DNA from: a virus
Lineage: Duplodnaviria; Heunggongvirae; Uroviricota; Caudoviricetes
IMG/VR virus record: IMGVR_UViG_2874933748_000006
Direction: 5' to 3' (one strand)
Length of the DNA stretch: 18,304 nt
Below, piece after piece: positions 6,565-12,517 of the stretch. The notes under the pieces are model-generated. The model was given only the letters and a program-made list of their open reading frames with translations. It was not told where the DNA came from and searched no databases. Within the stretch, counting starts at the first letter, position 1, and the number at the start of each line of letters is the position of its first letter. The position numbers were made by a program, and so were the translations under genes.

Positions 6565-6619
6565 GGTGATGCTGCCAACTTACTGATTTAGTGTATGATG
6601 GTGTTTTTGAGGTGCTCCA

Positions 6620-6895
6620 GTGGCTTCTGTTTCTATCAGCTGTCCCTCCTGTTCAGCTACTGACGGGGTGGTGCGTAACGGCAAAAGCACTGCCGGACAT
6701 CAGCGCTATCTCTGCTCTCACTGCCGTAAAACATGGCAACTGCAGTTCACTTACACCGCTTCTCAACCCGGTACGCACCAGAAAATCATTGATATGGCCA
6801 TGAATGGCGTTGGATGCCGGGCAACTGCACGCATTATGGGCGTTGGCCTCAACACGATTTTACGTCACTTAAAAAACTCAGGCCGCAGTCGGTAA
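6620..6895 (+). CDS. insA: IS1 InsA
   Basis: A 91-aa ORF starting with GTG, with the zinc-finger-like CPSC...CSHC motif. It is identical in translation to the second copy. The A_AAA_AAC frameshift heptamer lies at 6871-6877. Confidence 0.95.
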
Positions 6896-7316
6896 CCTCG
6901 CGCATACAGCCGGGCAGTGACGTCATCGTCTGCGCGGAAATGGACGAACAGTGGGGCTATGTCGGGCTAAATCGCGCCAGCGCTGGCTGTTTTACGCGTA
7001 TGACAGTCTCCGGAAGACGGTTGTTGCGCACGTATTCGGTGAACGCACTATGGCGACGCTGGGGCGTCTTATGAGCCTGCTGTCACCCTTTGACGTGGTG
7101 ATATGGATGACGGATGGCTGGCCGCTGTATGAATCCCGCCTGAAGGGAAAGCTGCACGTAATCAGCAAGCGATATACGCAGCGAATTGAGCGGCATAACC
7201 TGAATCTGAGGCAGCACCTGGCACGGCTGGGACGGAAGTCGCTGTCGTTCTCAAAATCGGTGGAGCTGCATGACAAAGTCATCGGGCATTATCTGAACAT
7301 AAAACACTATCAATAA
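6871..7316 (+). pseudogene. insB: IS1 insB' region (InsAB' transposase C-terminal part), frameshifted
   Basis: The A6C heptamer at 6871-6877 is the known IS1 -1 frameshift site. Downstream, the InsB frame is broken at GGG 6964-6966 (GGGG in copy 2), which splits the ORF into 6814-7074 and 6951-7316. Confidence 0.8.
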
Positions 7317-7331
7317 GTTGGAGTCATTACC

Positions 7332-7340
7332 CGTTAAAAC
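7332..7340. repeat. IS1 target-site duplication, right copy (CGTTAAAAC)
   Basis: Identical to 6556-6564. Confidence 0.9.
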
Positions 7341-7721
7341 ATCTGCAGATAATGACGTTGACTTGGATACAGATGGATTCAGACAACTGAGGATATCGTG
7401 CCCATCCCCTTCTGCCAGCGGTGCGATTATATTGAGAAAAGCTTCTTATGAATTCGGCAAAAGTATAGGTGTATTTGATTTTGCAAACAATGCATCACCA
7501 GCGACGATGACATTTTTGATCCCAATATATAAAGATGATGATTTTGATTCAGATACTGTTGGTTTTACATTTGCGTTCAAGATGCCAAGAGGCCAGTTTT
7601 TTGTAGATGTAAAAGAAAACGGGAATATCAGAGCTGGAGTTAATGTTAATGGCGAGTCGGGAGTGACCTACGAAAATTGCAAATTGAATATGAAAGATAT
7701 TAATGATGATTAATATATAAG

Positions 7722-7745
7722 CCGCCAGAAATTGGCGGTTTTTTT
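7722..7745 (+). terminator. Rho-independent terminator after the lipoprotein moron
   Basis: Stem ccgcca (7722-7727), loop gaaat, stem tggcgg (7733-7738), followed by a T7 run at 7739-7745, 9 nt after the moron stop codon. Confidence 0.65.
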
Positions 7746-7759
7746 ATAGTGGAGACAGT

Positions 7760-9151
7760 ATGGACTTACCTTCTTTACCTTCTCTTTCTTCACTCTTTTC
7801 TGCATCTTCAGGTATCAATTGGCGCGATAATCTTTACGACGCTTCATTTCGTGGCGTTCCGTTTTCGGTGGAGAGCGACGAGGGTTCGTTCGGACGCCGC
7901 GTTCAGGTCCATGAATACCCAAACCGTGACAAACCGTACACGGAAGATCTCGGGCGTGCCACGCGACGGCTGACGATTAATGCGTATCTCGTTGGTGATG
8001 ATTACGCAGAGCAGCGCGACAGGCTGATTACAGCGATTGAAACCGCCGGGCCGGGGACGCTGATCCATCCGCAGTTCGGTGAAATGCAGGGCTGTATTGA
8101 CGGGCAGGTGACCGTTTCTCACTCCGGCACTGAAGGCCGTATGTGCCGGGTTTCATTTCAGTTTGTTGAGAGCGGGGAACTGTCATTTCCGGTCGCCGGA
8201 GCTGCAACCGCCAGAAAACTGGAGGAGTCGTCCGTATTCCTGGATGAGTTGATTGAAGACATGTTCGGCGATTTTGATCTCGCGGGAATACCGGACTTTA
8301 TTCAGAACGATGTTATTGCCCGGACGACCGATATGCTGGGAACCGTTCAGACAGCTTTCAAAATGGTTAATTCGGCTGTTTCTGCCGGAGCGAGACTACT
8401 GCAGGGCGATTTATCCGTCATTCTGATGCCGCCGTCGGTTGCCAGTGATTTTGTGCATACGTTGCAGGATACCTGGCGGGCCGGAACCCGGCTGGTGGAT
8501 AACACACAGGATCTGGTGCAGTCCATAACGACAATGTCCGGCATTACGCTGGACCCAGGACTGGCACCGCGTGCGGTGTGGCCCACAGATTCCGCATCGG
8601 TTATCAGGCAAAAACAGCAGACAAACCTTGTGGCTGCTGTCATCCGGACGACGGCAATCAGCGAAGCCACAAGGGCGGTCACTTCACTGCCACAACCCGG
8701 AAGCCTGGTGAAAAATCAGCAGGCGGTTGTGGCTGTTGGTGGTTCCACTGAACGTCAGTCCGATATTATTCACGTTTCTCATCCGGCACTTGACAGCGTG
8801 GCAGCCAGCACAGGACAGGATGAGAGAGCGCAACCACCCACGCGGGAAAATCTCACCATCATACGCAAATCGCTGAACGCGGCGATTGAACAGGAGCTCA
8901 GGCGTACGGCGGATGACAGGCTGTTTTTTCAGCTGACGTCATTACGTACAGAACTGAACCGGGATATTCAGGCGCGTCTGGTTCAGACGGAGGAAACCGC
9001 AGAGCGAACGCCAGCGGAAGTTCTGCCTGCGCTTGTTCTGGCTGCGTCATGGTACGACGATGCGTCCCGTGAAACTGATATCCTGGATCGAAATGCCATC
9101 TCTCATCCGGGCTTTGTTCCGGTCAGGGCATTAAGGGTACCCGTCAGATGA
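7760..9151 (+). CDS. Phage DNA circulation protein (Mu gpN-like)
   Basis: ATG at 7760 preceded by GGAG. The N-terminal region (FRGVPFSVESDEGSFGRRVQVHEYPNRDKPYTEDLGRATRRLTINAYLVGDDY) matches the DNA circularisation protein family. Position after the tape measure fits. Confidence 0.8.
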   Translation: MDLPSLPSLSSLFSASSGINWRDNLYDASFRGVPFSVESDEGSFGRRVQVHEYPNRDKPYTEDLGRATRRLTINAYLVGDDYAEQRDRLITAIETAGPGTLIHPQFGEMQGCIDGQVTVSHSGTEGRMCRVSFQFVESGELSFPVAGAATARKLEESSVFLDELIEDMFGDFDLAGIPDFIQNDVIARTTDMLGTVQTAFKMVNSAVSAGARLLQGDLSVILMPPSVASDFVHTLQDTWRAGTRLVDNTQDLVQSITTMSGITLDPGLAPRAVWPTDSASVIRQKQQTNLVAAVIRTTAISEATRAVTSLPQPGSLVKNQQAVVAVGGSTERQSDIIHVSHPALDSVAASTGQDERAQPPTRENLTIIRKSLNAAIEQELRRTADDRLFFQLTSLRTELNRDIQARLVQTEETAERTPAEVLPALVLAASWYDDASRETDILDRNAISHPGFVPVRALRVPVR

Positions 9152-10747: not shown

Positions 10748-10752
10748 AAATC

Positions 10753-11163
10753 ATGATGATTAATGTTAACGGGCGACCCGTGTCGACCGGGGCTTCGATC
10801 GACCTTCTGACGCGTGCTGTGATTATTTCGCTTTTTACATGGCGGCGTGCCGGGCGTGATGATGCACCACGGATATTTGGATGGTGGGGGGATACCTGGC
10901 CTGCGGTTCAGAATGATCGCACGGGGTCGCGTTTGTATCTGTTGCGACGCAGCAAGCTGACAAATAAAACCCCGCAGCTTGCCAGAGATTATGTCCGTGA
11001 GGCGCTGGCGTGGATGGTGGAGGATGGTGTTGCTTCCCGTCTTGATATTAACGCTGTCCGGACCGGGACAGACTCGCTGGCACTTGCCATTACCATTTAC
11101 CAGCGTGACGGCAATATTCACAACATTATTTTTGATGATATCTGGAGTGAACTGAATGGCTGA
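10753..11163 (+). CDS. Mu gp46-like baseplate protein
   Basis: A 136-aa ORF with the GWWGD and SRLYLL motifs typical of the phage GP46 family, in the expected position between V and J. Confidence 0.75.
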   Translation: MMINVNGRPVSTGASIDLLTRAVIISLFTWRRAGRDDAPRIFGWWGDTWPAVQNDRTGSRLYLLRRSKLTNKTPQLARDYVREALAWMVEDGVASRLDINAVRTGTDSLALAITIYQRDGNIHNIIFDDIWSELNG

Positions 11164-11740
11164 CAGTCAGTTTTATCGCCCCGGCCTCCCGCAACTTATT
11201 TCTATGATCCGGAGCGATTTATTAACCCGCTTTGAGCAGGATACGCTGCTTCGTCGTATGGATGCGGAAGTGTATGCCCGTGTACAGGCTGCAGCCGTAC
11301 ACACGTTGTACGGGTATATCGATTATCTTGCCAGAAATCTGTTACCGGACGTGTGTGATGAAGACTGGCTGTACCGGCACGCCAGAATCAAACGCTGCCC
11401 GCGAAAAGAAGCGGTGGCAGCCCGGGGATTTGTGCGCTGGGATGGCGTAGAGGGGACGCCGGTATTGCCAGCGGGAACGCAGATCCAGCGTGATAATCAG
11501 GTGACCTTTACCACGACGGCGACGGTGACCGCAGCCGATGGTCTTCTCCGGGTGCCTGTTGTGGCAGACGAACCGGGATCGGCGGGGAATACGGATGATG
11601 GTATTGCCATGCAACTGGGAACACCCGTCAGTGGTCTGCCGTCCACAGGGTACGCTGACACCATTACAGACGGTGAAGATATTGAAAATCTGGAAATATG
11701 GCGTGCCCGCGTTATGGAACGTTATTACTACATTCCACAG

Positions 11741-11749
11741 GGGGGCGCA
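11741..11749. repeat. IS1 target-site duplication (GGGGGCGCA), left copy
   Basis: A 9-bp direct repeat identical to 12518-12526, flanking IS1 copy 2. Confidence 0.9.
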
Positions 11750-11764
11750 GGTAATGACTCCAAC

Positions 11765-12268
11765 TTATTGATAGTGTTTTATGTTCAGATAATGCCCGAT
11801 GACTTTGTCATGCAGCTCCACCGATTTTGAGAACGACAGCGACTTCCGTCCCAGCCGTGCCAGGTGCTGCCTCAGATTCAGGTTATGCCGCTCAATTCGC
11901 TGCGTATATCGCTTGCTGATTACGTGCAGCTTTCCCTTCAGGCGGGATTCATACAGCGGCCAGCCATCCGTCATCCATATCACCACGTCAAAGGGTGACA
12001 GCAGGCTCATAAGACGCCCCAGCGTCGCCATAGTGCGTTCACCGAATACGTGCGCAACAACCGTCTTCCGGAGACTGTCATACGCGTAAAACAGCCAGCG
12101 CTGGCGCGATTTAGCCCCGACATAGCCCCACTGTTCGTCCATTTCCGCGCAGACGATGACGTCACTGCCCGGCTGTATGCGCGAGGTTACCGACTGCGGC
12201 CTGAGTTTTTTAAGTGACGTAAAATCGTGTTGAGGCCAACGCCCATAATGCGTGCAGTTGCCCGGCAT
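11765..12268 (-). CDS. insB: IS1 InsB frame (expressed as InsAB' by -1 frameshift at 12205-12211)
   Basis: An intact 167-aa ORF in the -1 frame relative to insA, overlapping its 3' end, as in canonical IS1. Confidence 0.9.
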
Positions 12269-12462
12269 CCAACGCCATTCATGGCCATATCAATGATTTT
12301 CTGGTGCGTACCGGGTTGAGAAGCGGTGTAAGTGAACTGCAGTTGCCATGTTTTACGGCAGTGAGAGCAGAGATAGCGCTGATGTCCGGCAGTGCTTTTG
12401 CCGTTACGCACCACCCCGTCAGTAGCTGAACAGGAGGGACAGCTGATAGAAACAGAAGCCAC
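12187..12462 (-). CDS. insA: IS1 InsA
   Basis: A 91-aa ORF identical in translation to insA of copy 1. Confidence 0.95.
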
Positions 12463-12517
12463 TGGAGCACCTCAAAAACACCATCATACACTAAATCAGT
12501 AAGTTGGCAGCATCACC

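Follow-up and report, generated by a model that had tools for sequence, protein, structure and literature searches.

Two independent IS1 insertions of opposite orientation in the tail genes of a phiP27-like prophage remnant of Shigella sonnei

The stretch of DNA analyzed here (18,304 nucleotides; referred to below as the window) is a decayed phiP27-like prophage located at ssrA of Shigella sonnei, and it carries two IS1 copies in opposite orientation on either side of 4,418 bp of tail and baseplate genes (positions 7332 to 11749). It is almost certain that the two copies represent independent ancestral insertions and that the DNA between them has not been inverted. We consider it likely that the complete explanation is that of two old IS1 insertions in a dead prophage, including a miscall as the origin of the one base that distinguishes the two copies.

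Results

Two IS1 copies, each with its own target site

Base-by-base alignment of positions 6556 to 7340 (+ strand) with positions 11741 to 12526 (- strand), a check proposed in the earlier note, detected a single difference inside the elements (i.e., one indel in 768 positions), namely, a gap in the G-run of copy 1, which reads GGG where copy 2 reads GGGG. The inverted IS1 pair described in that note was therefore borne out to the base, and a match of 767 in 768 positions is far beyond chance. The two adjoining, 100% complementary inverted arms reported by a repeat finder (6564 to 6966 with 12116 to 12518 and 6964 to 7331 with 11750 to 12117) are a single 768-bp inverted repeat broken by the single-base indel. 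Both copies resemble the IS1A isoform of E. coli and Shigella in length (approximately 768 bp), terminal-repeat match (18/23), 9-bp target duplication, and reading-frame arrangement (insA in frame 0 and insB' in frame -1, joined through an A6C slippery site). Complete E. coli genomes contain copies carrying the annotation "IS1-like element IS1A family transposase" to which copy 2 is 100% identical over its 768 bp; the sole departure from IS1A is copy 1 as written (767 bp, with a frameshifted insB'). The coordinates of these features and of the neighboring genes are presented in Table 1.

Table 1. Features of the two IS1 copies and of the genes between and around them
Feature	Position	Strand	Details
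Hypothetical 160-aa gene, 5' fragment	6455-6564	+	Cut by IS1 copy 1; signal-peptide-like N-terminus
Copy 1 target-site duplication	6556-6564 (left), 7332-7340 (right)		CGTTAAAAC; 9 bp, exact, direct
IS1 copy 1	6565-7331	+	767 bp; 767/768 positions match copy 2
Copy 1 terminal repeats	6565-6587 (IRL), 7309-7331 (IRR)		Inverted repeats match at 18/23 positions
insA of copy 1	6620-6895	+	Intact, 91 aa; zinc ribbon and HTH (PF03811, PF12759)
insB' of copy 1	6814-7316	+	Split: 86-aa piece (6814-7074), 121-aa piece (6951-7316)
A6C slippery motif	6871-6877	+	Programmed -1 frameshift making InsAB', as read in the sequence
G-run	6964-6966	+	3 G (4 in copy 2 and in 10/10 sister genomes); insB' frameshifted after codon 51
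Hypothetical 160-aa gene, 3' fragment	7341-7713	+	Joins 6455-6564 in frame
DNA circularization gene (Mu gp43-like)	7760-9151	+	Intact; PF07157; phiP27 homologue L48
Baseplate hub gene (Mu GpP/gp44-like)	9148-10236	+	
Baseplate assembly protein V/Mu gp45-like gene	10214-10747	+	PF06890 in sister loci
GP46 family baseplate gene	10753-11163	+	PF07409
Baseplate J, 5' 198 codons	11156-11749	+	Cut by IS1 copy 2; ORF continues into IS1 to 11830 (224 aa)
Copy 2 target-site duplication	11741-11749 (left), 12518-12526 (right)		GGGGGCGCA; 9 bp, exact, direct
IS1 copy 2	11750-12517	-	768 bp, intact; insA 12187-12462, insB' 11765-12268
Baseplate J, 3' part	12527-13015	+	Joins 11156-11749 in frame

The earlier note had also assigned a separate matching 9-bp duplication to each copy, and the two pairs are indeed exact. 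In L001, an uninterrupted E. coli homologue of the locus, CGTTAAAAC is single-copy at an empty site (positions 7948 to 7956) and GGGGGCGCA is single-copy at a junction (positions 12349 to 12358), each 9-mer sitting precisely where its two alignment blocks abut. Taking out each IS1 together with one duplication restores both interrupted genes. For the first, the joined fragments form an open 483-nt frame encoding a 160-aa hypothetical protein (no family match in a Pfam search), an intact homologue of which is present in E. coli FDAARGOS_944 (WP_000594909.1). For baseplate J, they form an open 1,083-nt frame (360 aa) that covers the whole Baseplate_J profile (E = 1.8e-54). The segment between the copies comprises the 3' part of the hypothetical gene, the DNA_circ_N, hub, gp45, and gp46 genes, and baseplate J up to codon 198. 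The hub gene contains a GCTGGT tandem repeat at positions 9696 to 9718.

A phiP27-like prophage remnant

The window exhibited 94.6% DNA identity to phiP27, an Stx2e phage, across positions 2147 to 17016 (approximately 94.6% for the tail module) and 98.8% identity to E. coli prophage H1. The genes follow the same order as in phiP27 (i.e., sheath, tube, tape measure, DNA circularization, hub, V, gp46, baseplate J, gp48, and tail fibers), and this syntenic, high-identity tail and baseplate module places the locus among phiP27-like prophages. phiP27 differs in lacking both the IS elements and the 160-aa accessory gene between the tape-measure and DNA circularization genes, while the window, unlike phiP27, lacks the head and early regions. 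Its left side is occupied by an IS4 end and an IS600 copy; a prohead protease fragment (positions 491 to 886) abuts the IS600, the sheath gene comes directly after, and the capsid-to-tail-terminator genes that are present in L001 are absent. With the head module missing and two tail-module genes interrupted, the locus is not a complete inducible phage genome.

There is no difference of substance between this locus and the IS-riddled cryptic prophages of Shigella, in which genes are likewise pseudogenized by insertion (Hawkey et al. 2020, PMC7373316). IS1, IS4, and IS600, three of the five IS that have undergone expansion in every Shigella species (PMC7373316), occur here within 18 kb, and the head module is deleted beside an IS600 that has no matching duplication. 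The cited literature on Shigella IS expansion does not single out this prophage locus.

Conservation and orientation of the locus in S. sonnei

Both insertions were present, with the interior uninverted, in all 10 of the other S. sonnei assemblies examined, including that of strain 53G (HE616528; PMC5447701). Each of these sister loci aligned to the window as one collinear HSP with 99.84 to 99.97% identity. Related prophages in the E. coli complete-genome collection lack the two IS1 insertions, and no place in that collection covers at least 80% of the window. The 224-aa junction protein, which runs from baseplate J into IS1, appears in 226 blocks of the collection; in 186 of these, the longest contig measures 2 to 5 kb. 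Such lengths are expected if the two IS1 copies interrupt short-read assemblies, and the inverted pair explains the isolated contig of approximately 4.4 kb that this locus yields in short-read S. sonnei assemblies.

A simple crossover between inverted repeats produces an inversion and not a deletion. In formal terms, the 768-bp repeats would allow RecA to invert the 4.4-kb interior. Inversion isomers were sought by whole-locus alignment; DNA patterns were unsuitable because junctions of up to 600 bases are alike in both isomers when the repeat is 768 bp long. No inverted interior was seen in the 10 sister S. sonnei loci. Against phiP27 and L001, all blocks of the window align collinearly on the + strand, and the 4,418-bp interior likewise runs collinearly with phiP27 and the prophage of E. 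coli FDAARGOS_944, which is uninterrupted. On the basis of this collinearity with phiP27, FDAARGOS_944, and the sister loci, the interior is in its native orientation. The earlier note had concluded from the matching duplications that no inversion or deletion has occurred since insertion. The uninverted state stands, by virtue of the collinearity; the duplications themselves rule out an odd number of inversions but not an even number.

Composite transposons with inverted IS1 flanks exist (e.g., Tn1681), and Tn9 and Tn1681, like the present locus, have two IS1 copies bracketing a few kilobases. The geometry observed here (an IS, 4.4 kb of DNA, and an IS in inverted orientation, IRL forming each outer end) would suit a functional unit, i.e., a composite transposon that imported baseplate genes or an invertible expression switch. 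We regard such a unit as extremely improbable. The outer flanks differ (CGTTAAAAC on the left versus GGGGGCGCA on the right), and each IS has its own duplication in place of a shared outer one. In contrast to the passenger DNA of Tn9 and Tn1681, the interior is native prophage DNA, collinear together with both flanks with phiP27 and FDAARGOS_944, and the two insertions are independent. As for a switch, no inversion was found in the 10 sister loci, and with both flanking genes destroyed and the head module missing, nothing is left to switch.

The G-run of copy 1

An IS1 copy with GGGG has an intact InsB ORF of 167 aa. The contraction from four to three Gs does break insB, as the earlier note had pointed out, and splits the ORF into pieces of 86 and 121 aa. 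When the -1 shift was modeled, copy 2 yielded a 232-aa InsAB' that matched PF03811, PF12759, and PF03400 (E = 9e-78), while copy 1 yielded a product of 151 aa that retains 16 of the 131 DDE_Tnp_IS1 profile positions. Copy 1 follows the IS1 organization (insA, A6C, insB') only as far as the G-run; judged by these predicted products, only copy 2 is intact in the sequence as written. An in-frame insA-insB fusion created through the loss of one base was rejected, since the modeled products end at position 7074 and the downstream piece lies in the third frame.

Whether GGG reflects a defective copy or a homopolymer miscall had been left undecided in that note, and the comparison with the sister genomes now favors a miscall. 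In each of the 10 sister assemblies, both copies read GGGG. Over 16 kb of alignment between the window and the sisters, the five private columns all fall inside IS600 or IS1, which account for 15.7% of the aligned length, and the nearest sister (CP110404.1) does not differ from the window outside IS elements over 17 kb. The private differences (A7 to A5, A5 to A4, CCAGG to CCGGG with an adjacent 1-nt loss, and G4 to G3) appear to consist of homopolymer contractions and one error in a Dcm motif, as is typical of the residual errors that long reads leave in repeats. Nanopore consensus errors are dominated by these two types (PMC6591954), and errors of this kind survive short-read polishing within repeats (PMC8812927). 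Given the GGGG of the sisters and the confinement of the private differences to IS elements, the GGG at positions 6964 to 6966 is probably a miscall.

If GGG were real, copy 1 would have lost its transposase through a private slippage mutation or through gene conversion from another IS1 with the missing G. This would leave copy 1 as a nonautonomous IS1, with intact ends and an intact InsA repressor but with InsAB' cut to 151 aa, and mobile only with transposase from other copies. The sequence as given reads GGG, the modeled product keeps little of the DDE profile, and the window has no private differences in unique DNA, suggesting that the assembly is otherwise accurate. In IS-rich genomes, real frameshifts do contribute to the decay of IS copies. 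The same G4-to-G3 change is also recorded elsewhere, indicating that the tract recurrently changes or is miscalled: the 121-aa product is on record on 16 contigs, and the 10 places listed are all other IS1 sites, none of them at this prophage, while an exact-protein look-up returned no record of the 86-aa product. In LR213449.1, the missing G affects a different IS1 copy, and in the unique DNA of the present locus this assembly also shows three homopolymer contractions of its own. Against a real GGG stand the four Gs of all 10 sisters, including CP110404.1, which is identical to the window outside IS elements; a real mutation would also have to coincide with four other IS-restricted private changes of sequencing-error type approximately 5.7 kb away (in IS600, at positions 1201, 1236, and 1309 to 1312). 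We therefore consider a genuine loss of the G rather unlikely.

The IS600 changes bear on this assessment. Three of the four are also present in another assembly, in an IS600 copy that occupies a different locus, and the 99-aa OrfA variant of the window is on record, by exact-protein look-up, only at an unrelated locus. These differences could be a real IS600 allele brought in by gene conversion and not systematic error, in which case the argument that all private changes are errors would weaken. It is also conceivable, though very improbable, that the G4 tract in insB' is a genuine hotspot of recurrent slippage, at which IS1 copies are inactivated time and again in independent events, copy 1 being a real example. 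In IS1-saturated genomes, such as those of Shigella, the hotspot would keep transposase dosage in check, either as an inherent route of decay or as a reversible off-switch.

Discussion

The findings are most readily explained by two separate, old transpositions of an IS1A-type IS1 into the tail/baseplate operon of a phiP27-like prophage at ssrA. One copy entered the small accessory gene between the tape-measure and DNA circularization genes and the other, in the opposite orientation, codon 198 of baseplate J, each transposition producing its own 9-bp duplication. Both insertions were fixed before the compared S. sonnei strains, including the lineage II strain 53G, diverged. The missing G, which is private to this sequence, is most likely an uncorrected long-read homopolymer error of a kind that short reads cannot polish in multicopy repeats; if so, copy 1 is in reality an IS1 of the ordinary, intact kind.

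For the analysis of assemblies, the locus has quality-control value. The apparent insB frameshift and the IS600 differences at positions 1201 to 1312 resemble long-read errors that remain only in repeats, and the IS "pseudogenes" of this assembly should therefore be counted as real decay only with read support. The IS1 pair in the tail genes is itself ordinary and already known, being present in published genomes such as that of 53G. Because the prophage is a remnant that lacks the head module and carries an IS4 end and an IS600 on its left side, we infer that both insertions are neutral debris of the Shigella IS expansion. Their biological weight is small, that of one more case of IS1 debris in a dead Shigella prophage.

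Structure and coding state of the inverted IS1 pair

The repeat finder returned two adjoining, 100% complementary inverted arms (6564-6966/12116-12518 and 6964-7331/11750-12117); since these perfect arms abut, they form one long inverted repeat split by a 1-base indel. The base-by-base alignment called for in an earlier note (6556-7340 on the plus strand against 11741-12526 on the minus strand) revealed a single difference within the element, i.e., GGG at 6964-6966 in copy 1 versus GGGG in copy 2. All of that note's coordinates for the pair were correct, and each copy is indeed bounded by its own exact 9-bp duplication. 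The interior is 4,418 bp long.

Features of the window
Feature	Position	Strand	Remark
IS1 copy 1	6565-7331	+	767 bp
IS1 copy 2	11750-12517	-	768 bp
9-bp direct repeat around copy 1, CGTTAAAAC	6556-6564 and 7332-7340		identical both sides
9-bp direct repeat around copy 2, GGGGGCGCA	11741-11749 and 12518-12526		identical both sides
A6C motif	6871-6877		copy 1 numbering
L001 block 1	2609-6564	+	L001 4001-7956
L001 block 2	7332-11750	+	L001 7948-12358
L001 block 3	12518-14325	+	L001 12349-14156
Private change A7 to A5	1201		IS600, run within orfA/orfB frameshift region
Private change A5 to A4	1236		IS600
Private change CCAGG to CCGGG plus adjacent 1-nt loss	1309-1312		IS600, start of orfB frameshifted
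Private change G4 to G3			IS1 copy 1
tmRNA gene (tag ANDENYALAA)	17245-17607	-	
smpB	17822-18304	-	

Copy 2 is an IS1 by all sequence criteria. Its 23-bp ends agree at 18/23 positions, and it encodes a 91-aa InsA and a 167-aa InsB whose frame is offset by -1. When the -1 shift was modeled at the A6C motif, a 232-aa InsAB' resulted, with Zn_ribbon_InsA, HTH_Tnp_IS1, and full DDE_Tnp_IS1 domains (E = 9e-78). Complete E. coli genomes contain copies with 100% identity to copy 2, annotated as "IS1-like element IS1A family transposase." Copy 1 retains InsA and both ends. As the earlier note held, the G-run contraction breaks insB: the frame shifts past InsB codon 51, splitting InsB into 86-aa and 121-aa pieces, and the modeled InsAB' ends at 151 aa with 16/131 DDE profile positions kept.

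Insertion sites and orientation

The uninterrupted homologous prophage of E. coli FDAARGOS_944 (L001) aligned to the window in blocks that overlap by the 9-mers alone; thus, each 9-mer is present once, at its own empty site. We excised each IS1 plus one duplication in silico and read the resulting frames. Excision of copy 2 reopened a 1,083-nt frame covering the entire Baseplate_J profile, while excision of copy 1 reopened a 483-nt frame encoding a 160-aa protein of no Pfam family. The latter gene (6455-6564 plus 7341-7713), located between the tape-measure and DNA-circularization genes, has a signal-peptide/lipobox-like N terminus (...AILTSCC...). The E. coli prophage carries this gene and phiP27 lacks it, so it may be an accessory gene of the moron type.

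No duplication is common to the two outer flanks, which excludes arrival as a composite transposon. We also rejected the reading of the pair as a switch (i.e., a functional unit). The earlier claim that no inversion has occurred stands with one refinement: the interior is in its native orientation, as all L001 blocks are on the plus strand, but matched duplications exclude only odd numbers of inversions. The 768-bp inverted repeats could recombine via the RecA-dependent pathway. IS-flanked rearrangements are on record in Shigella (PMC8092226; PMC8072062).

Conservation among S. sonnei strains

By exact-match lookup, 226 blocks of the public collection contain the junction protein (11156-11830), which consists of codons 1-198 of baseplate J and their continuation into copy 2. 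The longest carrying contig was 2 to 5 kb for 186 of these, as expected of short-read assemblies breaking at the two IS1 copies. Ten loci were fetched, including that of S. sonnei 53G (HE616528; lineage II [PMC5447701]); the window is therefore assigned to S. sonnei, a species in which phiP27-like prophage regions are routinely reported (PMC5447701). Each aligned to the window as one collinear HSP (99.84 to 99.97% identity), so both insertions predate the divergence of these strains; whole-locus alignment showed inversion of the interior in none of the 10. Four loci (L004, L005, L007, and L012; GCA_0401889xx/GCA_04018900x) have numerous homopolymer indels in their unique DNA, and their tape-measure, tube, gp46, and tail-fiber genes look split. 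The four are apparently long-read assemblies that were left unpolished, and the "pseudogenes" they show here are not to be trusted.

Origin of the missing G

Copy 1 has GGGG in all 10 sister assemblies. In a multiple alignment of the window and the ten sisters (16,075 bp), five columns were private to the window, all within IS elements, which make up 15.7% of the aligned length; there were no further differences from the nearest sister (CP110404.1). The IS600 copy (887-2146) is 1,260 bp in the window versus 1,264 bp in all sister loci. Two classes dominate Nanopore consensus errors, namely, wrong homopolymer lengths and errors at the Dcm motif CCAGG/CCTGG (PMC6591954). In repeats, where short reads align unreliably, such errors typically survive polishing with short reads for that reason (PMC8812927). 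The missing-G product occurs on 16 contigs, with 10 places among the matches listed, all at unrelated IS1 sites; LR213449.1 has it at a different IS1 copy and, in the unique DNA of the present locus, shows three homopolymer contractions of its own. Taken together, these observations favor a miscall as the better, and fairly probable, explanation of the missing G. The main caveat, however, is that an IS600 copy from an unrelated locus (L023; GCA_016458135.1) shares the first three of the four IS600 changes. This recurrence could reflect a real allele spread via gene conversion or the same systematic error; the IS600 changes look like long-read systematic errors, with a real allele possible.

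Prophage context

The window corresponds to the tail-encoding half of a phiP27-like prophage (94.6% identity to phiP27 over 2147-17016; 98.8% to the E. coli FDAARGOS_944 prophage). The genes run from sheath, tube, assembly protein, tape measure (4438-6387), and the 160-aa accessory gene to DNA circularization, followed by hub, gp45, gp46, baseplate J, gp48, and tail fibers. The tmRNA gene and smpB at the window end place the prophage directly adjoining ssrA. In one sister strain (L008; CP044151.1), the sequence departs from that of the window at 17282 and continues as a different integrase-bearing element, so occupancy of the ssrA site differs in that strain.

The window opens with the final 436 bp of an IS4 copy, followed by a prohead-protease (Peptidase_S78) fragment that ends at IS600 (887); the sheath gene begins 20 bp past IS600 (2147-2166 between). 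The IS600 flanks (GAC/AGG) form no duplication. The capsid-to-tail-terminator genes are present in L001 but lacking in the window; this arrangement suggests their loss in an IS600-associated deletion.

Within the hub gene, a perfect GCTGGT tandem repeat (3.8 copies; 9696-9718) varies among S. sonnei assemblies (-6 bp in L003; -12 bp in L006 [i.e., 53G] and L008), shortening the 362-aa product to 360 and 358 aa, respectively, i.e., an in-frame VNTR in a dead gene. The L001 and phiP27 alignments break at ~14325-14436, in the tail-fiber/tail-fiber-assembly region (14360-14860), which is therefore mosaic. An imperfect 25-nt palindrome lies at 14508-14545, and the tail fiber assembly ORF (14785-15180) is shorter than its counterpart in the E. 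coli relative.

Significance

Five IS have expanded in all Shigella species, where they drive pseudogenization; IS1, IS4, and IS600 belong to this set, and IS1 accounts for most insertion sites (PMC7373316). The IS1 pair is a real, ordinary, already-sequenced product of this expansion. Nothing about it is out of the ordinary except the 767-bp copy, which is probably an artifact and, if real, would be a commonplace nonautonomous IS copy.
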